Shown here: positions 14,614 through 27,499 of the stretch, one piece after another
How positions within the stretch are numbered: the first letter of the stretch is position 1
Layout of the letters: each line of letters starts with the position of its first letter
Assembly: GCA_048886185.1 (NCBI GenBank)
Contig: JBHLKY010000007.1
Span: 180,001-212,000, forward strand
DNA length: 32,000 nucleotides
Reading direction: 5' to 3'
DNA from: Candidatus Hermodarchaeota archaeon
GTDB taxonomy: Archaea > Asgardarchaeota > Heimdallarchaeia > Hodarchaeales > Hodarchaeaceae
Position numbers and translations under genes: made by a program
The notes under the pieces: generated by a model
The model's input: only the letters and a program-made list of their open reading frames with translations
Database searches by the model: none
What the model was told of the DNA's origin: nothing

Positions 14614-15111
14614 ATGCAAAGACCTGATTTTCTCTCGGATTATGAGTTTGAGGTACTACGGCTAACTAACGAAGGAAAAAATGCCGACGAAATCGCACAA
14701 TTATTGAAAAGGAAGAATGCTGGTAGTATCTATAAAACAAGAGTAGTAGTCTGGAGGAAAATCGAGGAACAGTTGAAGAATATTGCTAAGAGTCTACGAT
14801 TAGATCCTGATCTGACTCGGATGCCTAAAAATTCTGGATTGCTAGTTTCTTACGATTGGACCAATGATACGAAGGTATATATCATTTTTACAACTGATGA
14901 AGGAATTTTAGCTTGGTATGAGCATCACTGTTCTAATAAATGCCAACCTAAGTGTCAACAGACTCTTGATCTGATTATAAGAGAACGAAATATTGTATTA
15001 AGCAAAGAACAGACTTCTTTACCTATTCTCGAACAATTTCGTTTCGTTTTTTCAGAGATTCAGGTGAAAGGATGGGTGATACAGCAATCCAAGGTTCACA
15101 AAGGTGATTGA
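14614..15111 (+). CDS. LuxR/sigma70-r4-like HTH regulator with a His/Cys-rich C-terminal domain
   Basis: LSDYEFEVLRLTNEGKNADEIAQLL N-terminus; WYEHHCSNKCQPKC; overlaps the start region of the next gene. Confidence 0.65.
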   Translation: MQRPDFLSDYEFEVLRLTNEGKNADEIAQLLKRKNAGSIYKTRVVVWRKIEEQLKNIAKSLRLDPDLTRMPKNSGLLVSYDWTNDTKVYIIFTTDEGILAWYEHHCSNKCQPKCQQTLDLIIRERNIVLSKEQTSLPILEQFRFVFSEIQVKGWVIQQSKVHKGD

Positions 15112-15784
15112 CATCATGAATGAAACATCTCAAGTTAAAATTATAAAAGGAGAAGGAACATATCCAACACCTGAAGTACGTCGAATCTATCCATCACGAG
15201 CTCTTCTGTGGAAATTTTATCTCACTACATTCCTCATTTGGATTATAGTAAGTATAGGATTTATCCTACTCGGATGGTTTGTACAGTTTGTGATGGACGA
15301 ACCTAAACCCACGAATTTCCAAAATCTGTTTATAATGATCTATTGGGCTATAAGTATTGCTATTATACTCCCTTCAATAATTCTTTTACCATTATATGTT
15401 AATAGAATGGAGTATATAGTTCATGGTAACGAAGTGATTGTTAAAAAAGGATTAATCAATAAAACAGTCAAGTATTGTCCTTATCGAACGGTTACTAATA
15501 TCTCAACAACTGCTGGACCTTTCGATCGTCTTTTTGGTATAGGGTGTGTTAATATTCAAACTGCAGGTAAGGGTGGGGCAACTGGTCCTGAAGAAAAGTT
15601 GGAAGGCTTACCACTATATCATGAAATTCGTGATTATATTCTAAGACAGCTTCGAATCTATTATACAGCTATCTCGGGAGAATTAATACCTACCGCCAAA
15701 GAAACAGATTTATTAACAATACAACGAGAGATAATCAACGAATTGAGAGAGATAAAACAATTATTGAAAAATGAAAAGAATTAG
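15104..15784 (+). CDS. bPH_2 (YdbS/DUF304-like) PH-domain membrane protein 1 (start probably ATG 15116)
   Basis: Two TM helices then Y.V..NEVIVKKGLINKTVKYCPYRTVTNIS..GPFDRLFGIGCVNIQTAG. Confidence 0.85.
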   Translation: MIDIMNETSQVKIIKGEGTYPTPEVRRIYPSRALLWKFYLTTFLIWIIVSIGFILLGWFVQFVMDEPKPTNFQNLFIMIYWAISIAIILPSIILLPLYVNRMEYIVHGNEVIVKKGLINKTVKYCPYRTVTNISTTAGPFDRLFGIGCVNIQTAGKGGATGPEEKLEGLPLYHEIRDYILRQLRIYYTAISGELIPTAKETDLLTIQREIINELREIKQLLKNEKN

Positions 15785-15792
15785 GTGGTTAA

Positions 15793-16470
15793 ATGGTGAA
15801 AGAAAATACAATTCAAAATGGAAAACCATTCTATCCTGTTTCTGCATTCAGGAACAAATTATTCTTGTATATTATAACAACATTCGTTGCTATAACAGGC
15901 GTAATTATAACTTTTGGAGGAATAATTACATTTTTTGTGAGTCTAGATAATGATTCATCTGAGGATAACTTTGGAAAATGGCTAGTAGAATACAGTCAAG
16001 ATCTCATATTATTGTATTTAATCATCAGTATGATGTTGATGCTTCTTACTGCTATCTTAGTGGTATATTACGTACGAAATATAGAATATATTATTGATGA
16101 CACTGAAGTTATAGTCAAAAAAGGAATCATCAATAAAACTATAACACATGTCCCGTTCAGAACGATTACCAATGTTAGCTCTCGCTACGGACTCTATGAT
16201 CGAGTTTTTGGAATAGGTACCTGTGAAATAGAAACCGCAGGAAAGTCAGGACAACAAACTGGTCCTGAAGAGAAAATTGAAGGGATAGTTAATTTTAAGG
16301 AAGTAAGGGACGTAATTCTGAAGGAACTTCGTAGGTTTCGGGGACAATATGCAACTACGACTGAATTTGAACATCCAGATTACCCAGAGGAGTCAATCGG
16401 AGATATTGTCCTTCAGAAGGAGATTCTCGACGAACTACGTCATATAAAAGAGATTCTCTCTAAAAGATAA
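15793..16470 (+). CDS. bPH_2 PH-domain membrane protein 2
   Basis: Two TM helices then EVIVKKGIINKTITHVPFRTITNVS..YDRVFGIGTCEIETAG. Confidence 0.85.
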   Translation: MVKENTIQNGKPFYPVSAFRNKLFLYIITTFVAITGVIITFGGIITFFVSLDNDSSEDNFGKWLVEYSQDLILLYLIISMMLMLLTAILVVYYVRNIEYIIDDTEVIVKKGIINKTITHVPFRTITNVSSRYGLYDRVFGIGTCEIETAGKSGQQTGPEEKIEGIVNFKEVRDVILKELRRFRGQYATTTEFEHPDYPEESIGDIVLQKEILDELRHIKEILSKR

Positions 16471-16481
16471 TTGATTGTTAG

Positions 16482-17159
16482 GTGATGAAAAATATGTATT
16501 CTGAAGAAATTGTAAAAGGAAAACCTTTTTATCCGCTTTCTGCTTTACGAAACAAGTTTATTCTTTATATATTGACCGCTTTCGTAATAATCACAGCAGT
16601 TATTGTGGGATTTGCTTTATTCATAGGATTTATGGGTGGATTTGACAGTGATCCCTCTGGGGATGATTTTGGACGTTGGATTTCAGCTTCTTGGCCAACA
16701 ATTTTACTAGTTTATCTTCTTATATGGTTTATATTGATTCCAATTCTTATTGTCTTGGTAGATTATTACGTAAGAACAATGGAATTTACGATTCTTGACA
16801 ATGAGGTTATCGTAAAGAAAGGAGTGATCAATAAAGAGGTAAAACACATCCCATTCCGCACTATTACAAATGTTAGCTCTCGCTACGGGCTCTATGATCG
16901 AATCTTCGGTATTGGTACCTGTGAAATAGAAACTGCTGGGAAATCAGGACAACAAATGGGTCCTGAAGCCAAGATTGAAGGAATAAATAATTTTGTGGAA
17001 ATCAGGGATCTCATTTTAAAAATACTTCGCCAATTTCGTGGTCAATATGCTACAACAACAGAACTAGAACCATCTTCTACATTACCACCCTTACAAAAAG
17101 GATTTCATGGAGAAATGCTAGCTGAATTGCGGGAAATAAAGAGGATCCTTACTGATTAG
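16482..17159 (+). CDS. bPH_2 PH-domain membrane protein 3 (start possibly ATG 16494)
   Basis: Two TM helices then EVIVKKGVINKEVKHIPFRTITNVS..YDRIFGIGTCEIETAG. Confidence 0.85.
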   Translation: MMKNMYSEEIVKGKPFYPLSALRNKFILYILTAFVIITAVIVGFALFIGFMGGFDSDPSGDDFGRWISASWPTILLVYLLIWFILIPILIVLVDYYVRTMEFTILDNEVIVKKGVINKEVKHIPFRTITNVSSRYGLYDRIFGIGTCEIETAGKSGQQMGPEAKIEGINNFVEIRDLILKILRQFRGQYATTTELEPSSTLPPLQKGFHGEMLAELREIKRILTD

Positions 17160-17327
17160 TTGGACTCTCCACTACATTCCGCATTAATTCTCTTTAAAAA
17201 TTAAAGATTTAAAACCTGAATAGAAAACCAAGAGTACTCAAATTCACCTTTATGATATTGTTATATGGTAGATTAACGAAAAAGGTTGATTCTCTCAAAT
17301 AATGATAGTATAATTGGAGTGTAACAT

Positions 17328-18140
17328 TTGAACATCATTGAAATTGAAAATTTAACTAAAAAATTTAAAAATACCATAGCACTTGATAATGTCTCTTTGA
17401 CAATACAAAAAGGAGAGGTTTTTGGATTATTAGGGCCAAATGGAGCTGGTAAGACAACACTAATTCGGTTATTAATTGGTCTGATAAAACCAACCTCTGG
17501 TAATGCCCGTATTAAATACAATGGATTAGGGCCCTTTGACATTAGGAAAGACATAATGGATATCAGGAAAAAAGCAAGCTTACTACCTCAGGAGGCTGAA
17601 GTATATGAAAATTTGACTGCAAAAGAGAATATTATGTATTACGGTCAAATTTACGGCAATGTACCTAATGGAGAAGTCCGAAGACGTACTGAAGAATTAA
17701 TTGACATGATTGGTCTTCGGGGTCGAGAGAACGATGTCACAAAGGAATTTTCTGGAGGGATGAAAAGAAAAGTTCTGGTAGCTCGCGCTTTAGTGATGGA
17801 TCCAGTTTTAATTTTTCTAGATGAACCTACTACTGGTATTGATATATTGGGGGCTCGTACGGTACGCAACCTAATTAAAAGACTGGCTAAAGAACTGCAC
17901 AAGACAGTTATCTTAACAACACATGATTTAACGGAAGTAGAAGAGCTCTGTGATCGTGTGGGTATTTTAGTTAAGGGAAGACTTGCTGCAATAGGAACAC
18001 CTGATGAACTTGAGGAACAATTTACAAAAGCTCACTTAGAGGATGTATTTATCGGATTAACAACAGGAGAAGGTGTTTTAGAGGAAGCTTTGGATGAGCC
18101 AAAAAGGGGCTTCTTTTCTAGTATTTTAAGGAGAAAGTGA
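17328..18140 (+). CDS. ABC-2 type exporter ATP-binding subunit
   Basis: Walker A GPNGAGKTT, signature FSGGMKRK, Walker B IFLDEPT, H-loop TTHD; GGAG RBS + TTG start. Confidence 0.95.
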   Translation: MNIIEIENLTKKFKNTIALDNVSLTIQKGEVFGLLGPNGAGKTTLIRLLIGLIKPTSGNARIKYNGLGPFDIRKDIMDIRKKASLLPQEAEVYENLTAKENIMYYGQIYGNVPNGEVRRRTEELIDMIGLRGRENDVTKEFSGGMKRKVLVARALVMDPVLIFLDEPTTGIDILGARTVRNLIKRLAKELHKTVILTTHDLTEVEELCDRVGILVKGRLAAIGTPDELEEQFTKAHLEDVFIGLTTGEGVLEEALDEPKRGFFSSILRRK

Positions 18141-19480
18141 AAAATATGAGTACAGTCAAGCAAATAATGGCTTTAGTTAAACAGGAGTTACAAAGTGCAC
18201 GACGTACACGATATGTGATCTTTACGTTTGTCTTAATGCCACTTTTTATGTGGGGTATGCAGGGTGGAGTACAGATGCTCCTAGGTTTTGTAATGGGCTC
18301 CTCCCAAGAAGGAGTGACTATTTATTTTGTCAATTATGATGAAGGAAATGCAACTTTTGATCTCAATCTTGGAGATCAATTTCTTGATAGACTTCTGAAT
18401 TCTACCCAAACTAATACTTCTATTTTGTACAAGGCTAAAATCAATCATACAAAGTATGCTAATATGGACTATAATGATTTATACCAGAAAATCCACAGTT
18501 CTGAAACAGCTAGTGATTATACTCCATGTATTATAATTCCTAAAAACTTCACACAGGTATATTTGGACTTTAATATTACAGAGGGTGATATTCCTCCTGT
18601 TGTAGAGTTATACTCTCTTCCAGGTGGAATCCTTGGATCTTCTATGCTTGAAGCTGGTGTATATTCAATAGTTTCTCAATTTAATATTGTTGAATATCAT
18701 AAACTTGTAGGTTTTGCCCCTTCGCCTGTTCTTTTCGCAAAAGAAGAGGGGGCTGCTTCTATTTATGGTATTGGATTTGTTGGAATGATATCAATTATGG
18801 TAGCTGTTATTGCGCCAGCTCCATTCGTGTCGACATCTTTTGCTGGAGAAAGAGAAAAGAAGACAATGGAATCACTTCTTGCTTTGCCTATTTCTCGTTT
18901 TAATATACTTTTCTCAAAGCTTCTTGCTGGAATGGCCCTTATTGCAGTTTTTTCATTAATGAATATTCTTGGATTGTTTTTATTTTCAGCAATGATTGAT
19001 GTTGCTTCGGGTTCTATTGGTTCAGAGGAATATTCCTCCATCTTTGCAGTCGAACCATCACCAATTCTGTTGGTTCTAGTCGTTTCTATGATGTTTCTTT
19101 CGGCGTTTGTTGCCATCGGGATAGGTATATCCTTGGCAAGTTTAACTAAGGATGTACGTTCCGCGGAATCTATGTACAACATGTTCATGATGCTTCCTGC
19201 TATAGGGGTCGGTATGATTGCTATGTTTGGGGGAATCCCAGAACGAACTTTTGGTGGTGCTGGGATCTTTCTATACATCATTCCTTGGGCTCACTCAATT
19301 GCTATTTTGTCTAAGGGATTATATCCTCAAACTTATGCATCTAGTGCCTTAACACGTAATTTACCCGGAGGTGGAATTCCTATGGATCTAGTTATCCACT
19401 TTGGATTCTTGGTCATAGTGATTCTAGTCTGCTTATTCATTGCGTCTAAAGTATTTGAGCGTGAGGGGATTCTAACTTAA
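18137..19480 (+). CDS. ABC-2 type exporter permease (NatB-like)
   Basis: N-terminal TM, large extracytoplasmic domain, FAGEREKKTMESLLALPISRFNILFSKLL, further TMs; 4-nt overlap with the ATPase gene. Confidence 0.9.
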   Translation: MKNMSTVKQIMALVKQELQSARRTRYVIFTFVLMPLFMWGMQGGVQMLLGFVMGSSQEGVTIYFVNYDEGNATFDLNLGDQFLDRLLNSTQTNTSILYKAKINHTKYANMDYNDLYQKIHSSETASDYTPCIIIPKNFTQVYLDFNITEGDIPPVVELYSLPGGILGSSMLEAGVYSIVSQFNIVEYHKLVGFAPSPVLFAKEEGAASIYGIGFVGMISIMVAVIAPAPFVSTSFAGEREKKTMESLLALPISRFNILFSKLLAGMALIAVFSLMNILGLFLFSAMIDVASGSIGSEEYSSIFAVEPSPILLVLVVSMMFLSAFVAIGIGISLASLTKDVRSAESMYNMFMMLPAIGVGMIAMFGGIPERTFGGAGIFLYIIPWAHSIAILSKGLYPQTYASSALTRNLPGGGIPMDLVIHFGFLVIVILVCLFIASKVFEREGILT

Positions 19481-19515: not shown

Positions 19516-20283
19516 TTATTTTTTCTTCAAATAATTGTAAACAGCATCGAAAGCGTCGATCCATGCTGAAATTCCTTTTTGTCTAAGTAAAACGGTTAAA
19601 CCATACTCAGTTATGCCTCCTGGAGTAGCTAGGGTGTCAAGTATTACATCTAGATCTTTGTTTGGTTCATTTAATGCCATGTTCACAGTACCTCGTACTG
19701 TTTCAAGTACTAAGTTTCTGGCTATAGATTGAGGTACACCTTTGAGAGCTACCCAAGAAATTGTTTCATTCAATAAAACAAACATCCAAGCATAAAATGC
19801 TCCAATCACGCTTGCATGAGTAAATTCTGATTCATTTTGGAGTATATGAACTGTACCTAAAAGACTAAATATCTCTCGAGCATATACATTGTCTGGAAAA
19901 AGTAATGTTGGACTCTGATTGATCGCAGCACAAGATATAGGTAATGCTCGAATAACTTTAGCTGGTATTGTTACGGATTCTAACTTCTTAAGTGATAATC
20001 CGATTGCTACAGAGATTACTGTTTGATTAGTTCGAAATTTGAGGTTCTTTGCAACTTTTATGGTATCATCAGGACGAGTAGTTAAAATAACTATATCAGA
20101 ACTATTAACAACTGATTCATTATTCTTTGCTACTTTTACTCCGAATTGGGTCGCTAATTTTGAGGAAATTTCTCGATTCCGAGGTGAGAGAATAATTTTG
20201 ATGTCTTTTGATGCTTTCTTCAGACCTTCTACTAAATAGCTAGCTAGATGTCCTACCCCAATGATCCCAACCTTTTCAATCAT
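19516..20283 (-). CDS. Divergent pyrroline-5-carboxylate reductase-like NAD(P)H oxidoreductase
   Basis: Rossmann GIIGVGHLA, LSPRN, DIVILTTRP, RALP, ATPGGIT; ATGA overlap with the upstream B12 gene. Confidence 0.8.
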   Translation of the reverse strand: MIEKVGIIGVGHLASYLVEGLKKASKDIKIILSPRNREISSKLATQFGVKVAKNNESVVNSSDIVILTTRPDDTIKVAKNLKFRTNQTVISVAIGLSLKKLESVTIPAKVIRALPISCAAINQSPTLLFPDNVYAREIFSLLGTVHILQNESEFTHASVIGAFYAWMFVLLNETISWVALKGVPQSIARNLVLETVRGTVNMALNEPNKDLDVILDTLATPGGITEYGLTVLLRQKGISAWIDAFDAVYNYLKKK

Positions 20284-22049
20284 TTGTTAACTTCCTGAGC
20301 ACATTCAATTAATATTTTTAACATATCCTCTATATGATGACAAACATGTACTCCTAAATCCTTCAATTGCTGTGTAACATCAATTGGAATGCTTGTTTTA
20401 TCATCATCAATAATTTGGTTTAGCTTCCCTCCTATAAAAATTGGGATATCTAATTCAATCAACGCCATCTCCTTGCATAGTGCCTGTGAATAGTCAAGGG
20501 CAATTCCGTTGTATGTACTGACGGCAATGAAGTCTGAATCAGCTTCTTTGGCTCGCTTGGCAAGAATATTGGGATCAACACTGACCCCAACGTCAATTAT
20601 AGGAATTTTTAATCGTTTTAGGACTTCTACAAGAAGAATTTTTCCATATTCATGAACATCAGTACAAGCGACACAGATCTTAAATTGTGCCTCGTTTAAT
20701 ATAGCTTTGTCAGATGGATTTATGAGAGCGAGTAATTTTTTACTCTTCTCCTCCAATTCAGCTATTGTAGAAACTTTTACAACGGGTTTTCGGTAACGCA
20801 ACATGTGTTCATGGGGCTCTCCAGGACCAAACAATTCTTCTAACCGTTTGGCTCCAATTCGACGGATGGACAGAAGTAATTCGAAAGGGTCATTAATATC
20901 AATACCAGCTTTGCTCAATCCATCTAAAACTCGTTTTTTAAATTCTTTACCTGCCTTAACTAGTTGGTTTGTTATCCTATCCACCCTTTTCATATCAAAT
21001 AAGTCTTGAAATCCATCCGATCGGTGTATTAATCGGTTTGCAAAAAGATGTGCGTCGATAATTTCTTTAATTTCAGGGATCCTTTTTGCTTCTGTCACAG
21101 GAATAGGATTAATTCCATGGCCAGTTGGGAGTTTAAGTTGAGCAATGATATCGACTAATAAATAACTTGCAAGATTAGCATAATTTTCAACTTCATTTTC
21201 AACAAAGATGGTTGTATTGCCATATATCATGCTTCCAGGTGTTTTTGTAACCTTATAAAGTGCCCTTTGGAACGCTAGCCGCTTTTTAGGATCTGAAAAT
21301 GTGTGACCATAACAATGAGAAACCTGACCTCCAATAAGGTCCTCAATGATATGCCGTTCAATTAATACTGCCCCAATACTACAAGCCATATCACAAAAGA
21401 GAGCAGCAAATCCATCATCCAGATTTGAATGAATCATAACTTCAACTGGTTGAGCTGCACATAGAGCTAAAGCCTTAATTGTCTCTACTGTTGTACTCAC
21501 GTCATCATCCCACTTTGGCATACGAAAGGTGAAATATTGGCCAATATTCCCAATACTAGTTGATCCTGCTTTCAGAGCAGCAATTGTATTCTCAACTGCT
21601 GCTGGTGTTCCAATAACAAAGTCTCCAAAATGAGGTGCAACTGGTGCAGAGTGAGTTAAATCAATGAAGCTTTCAGGTTTGCTTAGAATTAATCCTGTTC
21701 CTCGAGGCATGTTTTCTCGGAGATTTAATGGGTACCCCATACTCCAATCCAAACAAATTCCATAACGATCTATTCTATAACCAGCAGTAGAAATATGATT
21801 ATAGATTTTCGTGTACGCTAATTTAGTCTTTGTAGGACTACGATATCCTATCTGTCCGTGAAGCATGATTGACCTTTCAGATGTTTGCTGGCGCTTATAA
21901 TCACTCTCTGATTGAACATCATATTTAGTTAAGAAAGGGCAAGAACCAACTGTTACTGACTGACTTAGTTGTTCTGCTTCCCCTAAAATATCATTTATAT
22001 CAGGTAGCTCCTTTTCTGGAAGGATTTGAGTTCGTTCAAGATTTCTCAT
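20280..22049 (-). CDS. Cobalamin-binding enzyme: large N-terminal catalytic domain plus C-terminal B12-binding Rossmann domain; reaction unknown
   Basis: TDVHEYGK (DxHxxG), IDVGVSVDP, FIAVSTYNG, IFIGG; no CxxxCxxC radical-SAM motif. Confidence 0.8.
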   Translation of the reverse strand: MRNLERTQILPEKELPDINDILGEAEQLSQSVTVGSCPFLTKYDVQSESDYKRQQTSERSIMLHGQIGYRSPTKTKLAYTKIYNHISTAGYRIDRYGICLDWSMGYPLNLRENMPRGTGLILSKPESFIDLTHSAPVAPHFGDFVIGTPAAVENTIAALKAGSTSIGNIGQYFTFRMPKWDDDVSTTVETIKALALCAAQPVEVMIHSNLDDGFAALFCDMACSIGAVLIERHIIEDLIGGQVSHCYGHTFSDPKKRLAFQRALYKVTKTPGSMIYGNTTIFVENEVENYANLASYLLVDIIAQLKLPTGHGINPIPVTEAKRIPEIKEIIDAHLFANRLIHRSDGFQDLFDMKRVDRITNQLVKAGKEFKKRVLDGLSKAGIDINDPFELLLSIRRIGAKRLEELFGPGEPHEHMLRYRKPVVKVSTIAELEEKSKKLLALINPSDKAILNEAQFKICVACTDVHEYGKILLVEVLKRLKIPIIDVGVSVDPNILAKRAKEADSDFIAVSTYNGIALDYSQALCKEMALIELDIPIFIGGKLNQIIDDDKTSIPIDVTQQLKDLGVHVCHHIEDMLKILIECAQEVNK

Positions 22050-22311
22050 ATTGTATTACCTTTATCACGATAGTTCGATTTTGAATTTTAGTGTTGTAGT
22101 AGTTTATTATCTTTTTATATTGAGGAATTTGATATATTAGAATAAGAGATAATTCTTATCATTTTTAACTTTCAAAACATTCTCTTGAAATTGACTTTTA
22201 TTCTACAGGTTATGTTTGGTACAGATTGTAATCCTTCTGAGCTGTTCATGAACAACCATATCTCCCTTTATTAAGCTCATTACTAATATCGCAAAGTAGA
22301 GTTTAATTACT

Positions 22312-24437: not shown

Positions 24438-25787
24438 CTATACCAAATTTTGTTTAGTAATTTTTTCGATTAAATCGATGAAGAATTGGCTTTCAATTCC
24501 TAGGTCTCCTAGTTCTTGGATGAGTAATCTATATGTTGGATGATTTGGCTTGAAAAGACCATTCAATCTTTGAAAAAGCTTCTTCGAGATAAATAACGAC
24601 AAATCAGAGTCTATTAAAGCATTATGCAGGTTTTTAATTGCTAGAGTAACCCCATTAATTAGTTGAACCTGATTTGTTCTTTTCATAATGTATGTGACCT
24701 TTTTACTTCTTGTAATAGCCCATCCTGGATATTTAGGGTTTCTAAAGGGAGATTTTTGTCGTTCGGAGTCCTCTAAATTTGACTTGGACAATTTATAAAA
24801 GCTTGGTTGAAACAAACCAAAGTCAATTTCCTTTAATGTCTTTTTGTGTGCATAAGATACAATTAGATAATTTCCACAATGACGATCCCAAGAGCCACAA
24901 ACGGAGTCAAACACCAACATTCTACCAAGATTTTCGGCATCATCTCTGATCAATTCTTCAATGTCATTTCTTGTTACTGCGCAAAAACTTATACATGCAG
25001 GAGTAAGTGGTTCAATCAGAAGATCCGAATTTTTAGCAAAGGATTGAAAAATAGATGAGCGATTGTTAAAAAGTAACAAAGCATGTCGAGGAACATTTAA
25101 TCCAATTATTTTTCCGATCTGTATTATTTGCAACTCTAGATTAGGATTATCTATATATTCTTTCTTTGGTAATGCTTTTACAAATAATCCTTGGTTCTTA
25201 AGAGATGAAAATAAGAAATAAGTCGGATGAAAACTATCCTTATTTTCTCTGAAAAACAGTAAACGAGAATGCTTCCTCGAAGGGATTAAGGATGAGACTT
25301 TTTGAAAGAAAAAGATGATACTTTGATAATAACTTAGTGATTTTTGACGCATACTTAAAACAAGGTAAGAGCCAATATATCCATGAATTAAATTATATTT
25401 TTTAAAAATAGTCATGTCGTGTGCAGAAATATGATTCATATCAAGAAATAATGCAAAAAAGGAAGAATAACTGCTCCATTGAATAGCAAAATGTAGATTT
25501 TCCTTGGTTTTCTTCCCTGAAACTTCATTGAGAGTCAAAAATAATTTTTTTCGAAAATATCTTTTATTGGTTAAAGGATTACTGTTTTCAATTCTCATGC
25601 TTGTTGATATCTTTTGGGGGATGGAGATATTTTTCAACTTCATAAAAATGCCTTTAGCTTTGATGTTTGATAGAAAACCCTGAGTATTTTTTTCAAACTC
25701 TGTTTCCCTCATTAAATTTTTCATTTGATTTTTTTCTATAGAACGATCCATAGGGCACAATGGTTTTTGTTTCACCCCAATATCCAA
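24438..25787 (-). CDS. Atypical kinase of the PI3K/PI4K-HipA-like superfamily
   Basis: LFVK (beta3 Lys), NLE..GKIIGLNVP (alphaC Glu), FDSVCGSWDRHCGNYLI (catalytic loop), EIDFG; N-terminal ~190 aa unassigned and start uncertain. Confidence 0.7.
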   Translation of the reverse strand: MDIGVKQKPLCPMDRSIEKNQMKNLMRETEFEKNTQGFLSNIKAKGIFMKLKNISIPQKISTSMRIENSNPLTNKRYFRKKLFLTLNEVSGKKTKENLHFAIQWSSYSSFFALFLDMNHISAHDMTIFKKYNLIHGYIGSYLVLSMRQKSLSYYQSIIFFFQKVSSLIPSRKHSRLLFFRENKDSFHPTYFLFSSLKNQGLFVKALPKKEYIDNPNLELQIIQIGKIIGLNVPRHALLLFNNRSSIFQSFAKNSDLLIEPLTPACISFCAVTRNDIEELIRDDAENLGRMLVFDSVCGSWDRHCGNYLIVSYAHKKTLKEIDFGLFQPSFYKLSKSNLEDSERQKSPFRNPKYPGWAITRSKKVTYIMKRTNQVQLINGVTLAIKNLHNALIDSDLSLFISKKLFQRLNGLFKPNHPTYRLLIQELGDLGIESQFFIDLIEKITKQNLV

Positions 25788-26641: not shown

Positions 26642-27499
26642 TCATATTAGTGCATCAAACACAGTTGTAGGTCGTCCAGTGTGACTTCTCTTCTCTTTAT
26701 ATTCAACTACAAATCCTTTCGCTATCAATCGTTGTAAGCTATCATAGATTGAGCTACGTGCAATGCCTGTTAATTGAACCATTTCAGGACGAGTAAGCGG
26801 GCCATAAGCGACTAAAATCTGAAATATATCCTGATCTAAGTCTTTTGTTATTTTTAGTTGTTCTTGGGCTTGTGAAACTTTTTGTTTAGTTGATGTTAAA
26901 TTAAATAACAGAACTTTAAGAATAAGAGAATCAGGACCAATTCCTAGCGATGCTAATTCTTGCAGAGATTGCCTTTTAATCATGGTTATAATATCTAGCA
27001 TAGGTGTTGTTTCAGGTAATTTAAAGAATTGACGTAGGGTATTTATTTCAATATAAAGCTGATATAATCGTTTAAAATCAATCTTTATTTCCTGTATTGC
27101 ATCCTCTGTAAGCTTTTTTGCTTCTTTTTCCTTAGTTCCTAAGCGTGATATCGAATCAGAGGCGTATTTCAGTTTTTCACTGGCATTCTTTAGATTTTTT
27201 TCTTTGATATCCGATATTGCGTCGTCGATGATTTTTTTGATGTCTTCCTCGTCCGCAGCAAAGGAAAGATTTACAACATTTTGAATCTCTATTAATTTTT
27301 GAAGGAAATAATAGTGCTGCTTAATGGGGTATAAGGAGGGAAGTCCTAAATCTTCCTGCATTTTTTGAAGAGATTTCCATGTTGTAAGAACATTTTCTTC
27401 AGAATCCATACCTTTTAAGCTTAACAGGTTTTTTAGTTCTTCCAGTTCTTTATCAGACGATTCATCAGATTCTGATGATACGATTATGTTACTGGGCAT
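26642..27499 (-). CDS. Helical/coiled-coil N-terminal domain fused to a C-terminal TrmB-like wHTH
   Basis: C-terminus GPLTRPEMVQLTGIARSSIYDSLQRLIAKGFV..GRPTTVF; K/E/L-rich helical N-terminus. Confidence 0.8.
   Translation of the reverse strand: MPSNIIVSSESDESSDKELEELKNLLSLKGMDSEENVLTTWKSLQKMQEDLGLPSLYPIKQHYYFLQKLIEIQNVVNLSFAADEEDIKKIIDDAISDIKEKNLKNASEKLKYASDSISRLGTKEKEAKKLTEDAIQEIKIDFKRLYQLYIEINTLRQFFKLPETTPMLDIITMIKRQSLQELASLGIGPDSLILKVLLFNLTSTKQKVSQAQEQLKITKDLDQDIFQILVAYGPLTRPEMVQLTGIARSSIYDSLQRLIAKGFVVEYKEKRSHTGRPTTVFDALI

Follow-up and report, generated by a model that had tools for sequence, protein, structure and literature searches.

A single-chain B12-domain protein coupled to a ProC-like reductase in an Asgard archaeon: a candidate adenosylcobalamin-dependent step in amino acid metabolism

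Which reaction is carried out by a large single-chain cobalamin protein whose gene overlaps that of a reductase resembling ProC? This question is raised by a 32,000-nucleotide stretch of DNA (hereafter the window) from the genome of a Candidatus Hermodarchaeota archaeon (assembly GCA_048886185.1, contig JBHLKY010000007.1, positions 180,001 to 212,000), in which two consecutive genes encode a B12-domain protein of 589 residues (P0001) and a ProC-like protein of 255 residues (P0002). The two genes form a real, intact enzyme pair. There is reasonable support for placing this pair in the class of an adenosylcobalamin (AdoCbl) radical enzyme with an imino-acid reductase, and the B12 protein probably catalyzes a reaction on an amino acid that is as yet undescribed. 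The features of the locus, in coordinates of the window, are as follows.

20280..22049, reverse strand: gene of the single-chain B12 enzyme P0001 (589 aa), stop codon included; from the list of open reading frames and the translation
20730..22049, reverse strand: triosephosphate isomerase (TIM) barrel substrate domain and C-terminal helical region, residues 1-440 of P0001
20283..20693, reverse strand: Rossmann-type cobalamin-binding domain, residues 453-589 of P0001
20643..20660, reverse strand: codons of the base-off/His-on cobalt-ligand motif D464-V-H466-E-Y-G469 of P0001
19516..20283, reverse strand: gene of the ProC-like NAD(P)H imino-acid reductase P0002 (255 aa)
20280..20283, reverse strand: ATGA overlap of the stop codon of the B12 gene and the start codon of the reductase gene, read directly in the sequence
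22050..22311, reverse strand: AT-rich intergenic region of 262 bp located 5' of the pair and shared with a divergent beta-propeller gene, read from the sequence; presumed to hold the promoter of the pair

The B12 protein and its predicted fold

In Pfam, P0001 gave a single match, to the B12-binding domain PF02310 (residues 463-546; 30.5 bits against a gathering cut-off of 32.1), and its NCBIfam matches, MetH and GlmS, were weak and confined to the B12-domain stretch. An earlier note on this DNA had described a 589-residue protein with B12 motifs at its C-terminus, and all of these are present: TDVHEYGK at residues 463-470, STYNG at 511-515 and FIGGK at 538-542. In an alignment of 40 family sequences, D464, H466, G469, S511, G540 and G541 were invariant; D464, H466, G540 and G541 were invariant in the sister subfamilies too, and G469 was kept in 65% of the sister sequences. 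P0001 carries the base-off/His-on B12 domain (DxHxxG ... SxL ... GG) of the AdoCbl-mutase superfamily. A pattern search found DxHxxG once and CxxxCxxC nowhere in P0001, which bears out the statement of the earlier note that the radical S-adenosylmethionine (SAM) motif is missing; an identity as a radical SAM or B12-radical SAM enzyme was excluded on this ground. The note had also seen no insert with the lysine that binds pyridoxal phosphate (PLP) after DxHxxG. In the aminomutase subunits KamE and OraE, we take this lysine to lie 11 residues past the cobalt-ligand histidine (structures 1XRS and 3KP1). The corresponding position of P0001 (H466+11) is occupied by L477, a nearly invariant leucine, and K470 is the lysine of a MetH-like DxHxxGK, so that the earlier observation stands. 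A PLP-dependent aminomutase of the KamE/OraE type was rejected for P0001, and because a leucine sits where KamE and OraE carry the PLP lysine, the B12 enzyme is probably PLP-independent.

The AlphaFold2 model of P0001, computed with 40 homologues in the alignment, reached a predicted local distance difference test score (pLDDT) of 90.6 and a predicted template modelling score (pTM) of 0.91. Foldseek searches with this model ranked methylmalonyl-CoA mutase, ornithine aminomutase, GlmE and KamD with E values from 1e-13 to 1e-6. The substrate domain is a TIM barrel of the GlmE type, with GlmE and KamD as its nearest folds, and the Atlas structure neighbours of P0001 were the Met_asp_mut_E and Lys-AminoMut_A clusters as well as barrel-only (split) forms. 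The layout of AdoCbl mutases, a large barrel followed by a C-terminal B12 domain, which the earlier note had read from the protein, is supported by the GlmE/KamD-like barrel and the His-on B12 domain of the model. The note had matched P0001 to no characterised mutase or methyltransferase, and none was found by sequence in Pfam, in NCBIfam or by PDB profile. PF09043 (Lys-AminoMut_A) did not match P0001, nor did PF06368 (Met_asp_mut_E) at E <= 0.01. No PDB barrel was matched by the single sequence or by the family profile, which found B12 domains alone in the PDB. In a library of 1.84 billion representatives, a profile of the barrel alone found 507 clusters at E <= 0.001, the best 150 listed all scoring at least 120 bits, and neither GlmE nor KamD appeared among the 150 top-scoring hits listed for the family profile. 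P0001 is a single-chain enzyme of AdoCbl-mutase architecture with a barrel outside every named family.

About 140 of the 440 barrel residues are invariant. Conservation across the superfamily includes D143, D212, D220, E231, T279 and E320 along with the B12 motif. Invariant in the ProC-paired family only are H64, R70, D101, W102, H140, N168, H207, N209, D211, Y247, Y296, D300 and H311, and R95, likewise invariant within the family, is in part conserved beyond it. Since the clade-specific invariant residues include two arginines, three aspartates and four histidines, the predicted pocket suits a zwitterionic amino-acid substrate. In GlmE, the substrate is bound by Arg66, Arg100, Arg149 and Glu171; R70 and R95 of P0001, both invariant in the family, may or may not correspond to residues of this set.

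Comparison with characterised AdoCbl enzymes revealed clear differences. Glutamate mutase (GlmE/MutE barrel and GlmS/MutS B12 subunit, with GlmL/MutL; 1CB7, 1I9C, 6H9E) consists of separate subunits and has methylaspartase as its partner, whereas P0001 is a fused chain partnered by an imine reductase; identity between the barrels is only 9%, P0001 has no PF06368 match, and MutL was not found in the host genome. Lysine 5,6-aminomutase KamDE (1XRS, 8T0V) and D-ornithine 4,5-aminomutase OraSE (3KP1) use PLP together with AdoCbl, unlike P0001 with its L477 and its missing PF09043 match. The 2-methyleneglutarate mutase of Eubacterium barkeri, compared by description only, is a single-chain AdoCbl mutase with a C-terminal B12 domain and a size similar to that of P0001, but its context, nicotinate fermentation, is absent around P0001. 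The Atlas cluster of Bacillota proteins (544 aa) that combine PF02310 with PF06368 is a separate structural neighbour, farther from P0001 (TM score 0.69).

The ProC-like reductase and its pairing with the B12 gene

The ATGA overlap of the B12 gene with a gene resembling those for pyrroline-5-carboxylate (P5C) reductase, reported in the earlier note, was found at 20280-20283. The extent of the pairing was determined by tblastn with several ProC-like queries at 84 homologous loci with room for a downstream gene. In 59 of them the ProC-like gene was the next gene downstream, in the same orientation, and in 5 more it lay within a few kb; it was absent in 20. In most homologous loci the two genes overlap by 3 to 10 nt. 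The adjacency is scattered over the entire family tree, with at least eight losses, and the identities of the B12 protein and of the reductase to the window copies co-vary (Spearman 0.87, n=55 loci), shared ancestry contributing to this value. Co-occurrence with ProC-like genes elsewhere, on which the proposal of the earlier note depended, is conserved across phyla and domains. The ATGA coupling together with the 59/84 adjacency across phyla rules out a chance neighbourhood.

P0002 contains the domains F420_oxidored and P5CR_dimer and has the two-domain fold of P5C reductase (P5CR), an NADP Rossmann domain plus a dimerisation domain; its fold is identical to that of P5CR and is shared with ProC/PYCR1 (3TRI, 5UAU, 2AHR). 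However, P0002 scored under the ProC equivalog cut-offs (TIGR00112: 117 against 196.75; NF005063: 162.6 against 254), and four further B12-paired reductases also fell below every ProC cut-off. A canonical proC is located on contig 2 of the same genome and passes with 271.8 bits on TIGR00112. The carboxylate-binding loop SPGGTT is retained in P0002 as TPGGIT, whereas the MPN and GSGPAY motifs are swapped for family-specific (A/L)P..., SPT and GAFYGW motifs. Because of the low ProC scores, the separate canonical proC, the conserved loop and the replacement of the other motifs, the reductase is best described as a dedicated P5CR paralogue and not as the housekeeping ProC. Its substrate is probably a carboxylated cyclic imine, which may differ from P5C, and the motif changes would agree with an imino-acid substrate of a related yet different kind.

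Distribution of the family and its genomic context

Homologues of P0001 in a word-index search fell into more than 1,488 protein clusters, of which the best 120 were 60-72% identical to P0001 over the full length and came from Asgard archaea, Chloroflexota, Acidobacteriota, Alphaproteobacteria and other groups; the homologues were labelled as "cobalamin-dependent protein" or, wrongly, as the B12 subunit of methylmalonyl-CoA mutase. In a scan of about 186,000 genomes, one per species, the family was present in 314, and within the host phylum (81 genomes searched) it was confined to the genus of the host. Maximum-likelihood analysis grouped the eight Asgard sequences in one clade (97 in the Shimodaira-Hasegawa-like approximate likelihood ratio test, SH-aLRT) nested among bacteria, with Emcibacteraceae/Kordiimonadaceae as the sister group (support 99). 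This nesting points to horizontal transfer: the two-gene module appears to be mobile, and the Asgard lineage seems to have gained it from bacteria. The cultured bacteria Pseudemcibacter aquimaris, Tistlia consotensis and Pacificispira spongiicola carry the pair. Literature searches found no published characterisation of any family member and no B12-dependent hydroxyproline dehydratase.

The sister subfamilies, which scored 165-290 bits against the barrel profile, adjoin genes for MutL/GlmL-type (PF13941) reactivase-like or hydantoinase-A/MutL-like proteins, as well as genes for class III aminotransferases, short-chain dehydrogenases/reductases (SDR), aldehyde dehydrogenase and amino-acid transporters. 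Because such reactivase genes are typical of AdoCbl radical enzymes, their presence argues for AdoCbl radical chemistry. Two loci (L092:1742-7238 and L093:1238-12013) hold divergent barrel subfamilies in a split form (427 aa, barrel only) and as tandem full-length paralogues. Among the neighbours of these are MutL or hydantoinase-A/MutL-like genes, class III aminotransferases, SDR, aldehyde dehydrogenase and an Orn/Lys/Arg decarboxylase, and these subfamilies probably belong to separate amino-compound pathways.

Where the ProC-like gene is missing, an SDR gene often abuts the B12 gene, as in a Chloroflexota clade. Since an SDR replaces ProC in these unpaired clades, the B12 enzyme probably forms a product with a C=O or C=N group open to reduction. 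In some gammaproteobacterial loci without ProC (L039:11788-12693, L048:2344-3285, L051, L055), the gene directly 3' of the B12 gene encodes a phosphatidylserine-decarboxylase-family (pyruvoyl) protein or an enoyl-CoA hydratase, which suggests altered functions in those clades. A bacterial metagenome contig (L005:6353-7801) carries a B12 gene without ProC-like partner and, divergently upstream, a gene of the non-Pyl MttB methyltransferase family; this is the sole context that hints at methyl transfer.

Further neighbours recur in 6-7 of the 84 loci each: PhyH oxygenases, AIG2/GGACT-like proteins, arginase, M24/DoeA-like hydrolases, enolase-superfamily and proline-racemase-family proteins. LysR and GntR regulator genes also occur next to the pair in many loci. 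In five of the 7 loci with PhyH-type Fe/2-oxoglutarate oxygenase genes, these genes touch or run into the 5' end of the B12 gene, and in one they follow the reductase gene. In three-gene operons the PhyH, B12 and ProC-like genes overlap or abut (L056:9114-12543, L057:9175-12507, L070:9196-12540, L083:9103-12555 and L067:3327-6702); PhyH loci often have a divergent GntR regulator, of the GntR/FCD type in these operons, and the oxygenases weakly resemble ectoine hydroxylase and halogenase models (39-53 bits). NCBIfam searches with the PhyH, M24, enolase-superfamily and proline-racemase-family neighbours gave no match above cut-off, the sole exception being one arginase that passed the rocF cut-off. 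The proline-racemase-family neighbours have Ser/Cys, Cys/Cys or Ser/Thr as catalytic pairs; Zhao et al. (PMC4113996) reported Ser/Cys for a 4-hydroxyproline epimerase cluster and Ser/Thr for a trans-3-hydroxyproline dehydratase. One locus (L066) has the order SDR, two proline-racemase-family genes, ProC-like gene, B12 gene, ceramidase-like amidase and enolase-superfamily gene. In Pseudemcibacter, the pair is followed by genes for an M17 peptidase and proteins of the lysine-ketoglutarate reductase/saccharopine dehydrogenase type. The informative contexts share proline, hydroxyproline, ornithine/arginine or lysine, amino acids that are catabolised via cyclic imino acids. The occurrence of such genes near some members points to cyclic imino acids derived from proline, ornithine or lysine, and the substrate class suggested in the earlier note (proline-, ornithine- or lysine-like) fits the hydroxyproline, ornithine or lysine enzymes beside some bacterial copies.

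The assembly of the host, which the best homologues place in the Heimdall/Hodarchaeales group, comprises 4.84 Mb and is 96% complete. Ten B12-binding domains were found in it, a sign of heavy cobalamin use, and the methylmalonyl-CoA mutase gene adjoins a CobA-type adenosyltransferase gene, which indicates that AdoCbl can be made and is used in the host. The window contains no GlmL/MutL or MeaB accessory gene, and no PF06368 GlmE gene was found in the host's own genome or in the 81 Asgard genomes searched. A second pair of a dehydrogenase and a B12 barrel protein is present on contig 3 of the host genome (about 14.4-17.4 kb; L102:67-2954), where a gene of the Octopine_DH family (388 aa) shares 4 nt with the gene of a 574-aa B12 protein. 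This protein has an N-terminal B12-binding domain and a weak C-terminal PF06368 match (15 bits), a domain order opposite to that of P0001; opine dehydrogenases likewise act on imines.

On the forward strand of the window, convergent on the pair, a 165-aa open reading frame is accompanied at positions 14614-19480 by a tandem array of three paralogous membrane proteins with bPH domains (15104-17159) and by an ABC-2 transporter (17328-19480). In other Asgard loci, but not in bacteria, this block keeps its synteny with the pair. A functional tie of the pair to the ABC-2 transporter, the bPH-domain genes or the beta-propeller protein was rejected, given that the synteny is limited to Asgard archaea and that the genes are convergent or divergent in orientation. 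On the reverse strand, 24438-25787 encodes a 449-aa protein with a faint PI3_PI4_kinase match (E 0.0086, 16.5 bits), well under the cut-off and possibly of interest in an Asgard genome, and 26642-27499 encodes a regulator of archaeal type (285 aa) whose C-terminal domain is a winged helix resembling TrmB/Lrs14/Sta1.

Proposed reaction and alternative explanations

On balance, we consider it probable that an AdoCbl radical enzyme acts on an amino acid to give a carbonyl or imine, which is then reduced by a private P5CR paralogue. That AdoCbl is the cofactor, which enzyme acts first and what class of substrate is used are our inferences. The GlmE/KamD-like TIM barrel would hold the substrate over base-off/His-on cobalamin bound by the fused C-terminal Rossmann domain. 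Homolysis of AdoCbl would generate a 5'-deoxyadenosyl radical taking a hydrogen from an amino-acid substrate with carboxylate and amine, probably a hydroxylated or otherwise activated compound of the proline, ornithine or lysine type. A radical 1,2-shift or an elimination would then lead to a carbonyl or imine which, by ring closure or because the ring is present from the start, would exist as a cyclic delta-1-imino acid. Finally, the ProC-like enzyme would convert this cyclic imino acid with NAD(P)H into a proline- or pipecolate-like product.

A more specific version, which we regard as unlikely, makes the B12 enzyme a hydroxyproline/hydroxylysine dehydratase (eliminase) and thereby the B12 counterpart of the glycyl-radical enzyme HypD. 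The same low confidence applies to its fuller form, in which P0001 would be the first AdoCbl eliminase on a base-off/His-on scaffold of the GlmE type, oxygen-tolerant, and would remove water or ammonia from a hydroxy-amino acid such as 5-hydroxylysine or an isomer of hydroxyproline; the P5CR paralogue would then reduce the resulting cyclic imino acid. HypD, a trans-4-hydroxy-L-proline dehydratase, follows the same logic: its genes lie near P5CR genes, the radical enzyme makes a cyclic imine and the reductase yields proline (PMC7077986). It is unrelated to P0001, from which it differs in fold, cofactor and oxygen sensitivity, and P0002 belongs to a divergent P5CR subfamily; genes of the hydroxyproline family do neighbour some members of the P0001 family.

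Several points weigh against the proposed scheme and against the eliminase version in particular. To our knowledge, all AdoCbl eliminases bind the cofactor base-on and have another architecture, and we know of no precedent for a His-on eliminase. Hydroxyproline dehydration is without precedent in B12 enzymology according to the paper on HypD (PMC7077986). In the 7 loci mentioned above, the operon includes the PhyH oxygenase genes, and a plain route from hydroxyproline to proline would be a futile cycle there; therefore, the substrate in these loci is probably something else, which argues that the PhyH-fused members at least do not simply reverse proline hydroxylation. Most loci, including the window, have no informative neighbours beyond the pair itself, and each informative family is found in only 6-7 of the 84 loci. 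Moreover, cobalamin binding by P0001 is a prediction from sequence and fold, with a PF02310 score slightly under the gathering threshold, and neither a reactivase (PF13941) nor a PduO-type adenosyltransferase was found in the 96%-complete host genome.

The nearest folds, GlmE and KamD, are mutases and not eliminases, and the base-off/His-on cofactor mode is that of all known mutases. The main rival to the proposed scheme is accordingly that P0001 is a genuine isomerase, namely a mutase that rearranges the carbon skeleton or moves an amino group of a cyclic amino acid or cyclic imine, and that the ProC-like enzyme works earlier or in the oxidative direction; we rate this as possible, if rather unlikely. 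For instance, piperideine-6-carboxylate (P6C) or P5C from lysine or ornithine catabolism would be reduced to pipecolate or proline and then rearranged, or the cyclic imine would provide the C=N pi-system that PLP provides in aminomutases. Without a conserved PLP-lysine position, an aminomutase-like shift would indeed need such a substrate-borne imine, and the genes that follow the pair in Pseudemcibacter, a member of the clade sister to the Asgard sequences, are of the type that makes P6C. In ornithine and lysine fermentation, aminomutase operons are followed by NAD(P) dehydrogenases, so that a downstream dehydrogenase also has its parallel there. However, P5CR-type imine reductases do not follow in known mutase pathways, the replacement of ProC by another reductase-type enzyme (SDR) is a better fit to a reducible product, and no candidate rearrangement product is a known common metabolite. 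The gene order, with the B12 gene first, is uninformative as to whether a mutase or the proposed formation of a reducible product is involved.

The B12 domain by itself resembles MetH most, in NCBIfam as well as by PDB profile (E 8e-12), and has the DxHxxGK of MetH. A corrinoid (methylcobalamin) methyltransferase with fused barrel and corrinoid domain, for example one demethylating an N-methylated proline derivative, would also agree with the MttB-family gene of L005, with a dimethylglycine-dehydrogenase-like gene nearby in three loci and with an Atlas MtaB cluster listed at the low feature score of 0.77. The fold, the reactivase neighbours of the sister subfamilies and the absence of methyl-transfer partners make this quite improbable, and the demethylation that the earlier note had offered as an option is disfavoured by the same fold and reactivase genes. 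Even more improbable is ordinary proline biosynthesis or salvage. P0002 would then serve as the housekeeping P5C reductase, and P0001 would either be unrelated to it or sense cobalamin without a catalytic role. P5C-reductase models are the best NCBIfam hits of the reductase, and its fold is that of P5CR, but all B12-paired reductases tested score below every ProC cut-off, the above-cut-off proC lies on another contig, and the roughly 140 invariant barrel residues indicate a catalytic protein and not a sensor. The ATGA coupling and the adjacency across phyla speak against this explanation as well; chance adjacency to a housekeeping ProC is excluded in practice by this adjacency and the separate canonical proC.

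Only about a dozen AdoCbl-dependent isomerase or eliminase reactions are known to us, and new ones are rare. Solving the reaction of this family would add to B12 chemistry, assign a role to genes labelled only "cobalamin-dependent protein" or "pyrroline-5-carboxylate reductase" and account for a further need for cobalamin among microbes of the sea and of sediments. As cultured bacteria carry the pair as a clean unit of two genes, it is open to direct testing. If a His-on eliminase were true, it would represent a reaction class new to B12 enzymology, and with it a novel and widespread way in which hydroxylated amino acids are recycled in marine, soil and sediment microbes, Asgard archaea included.

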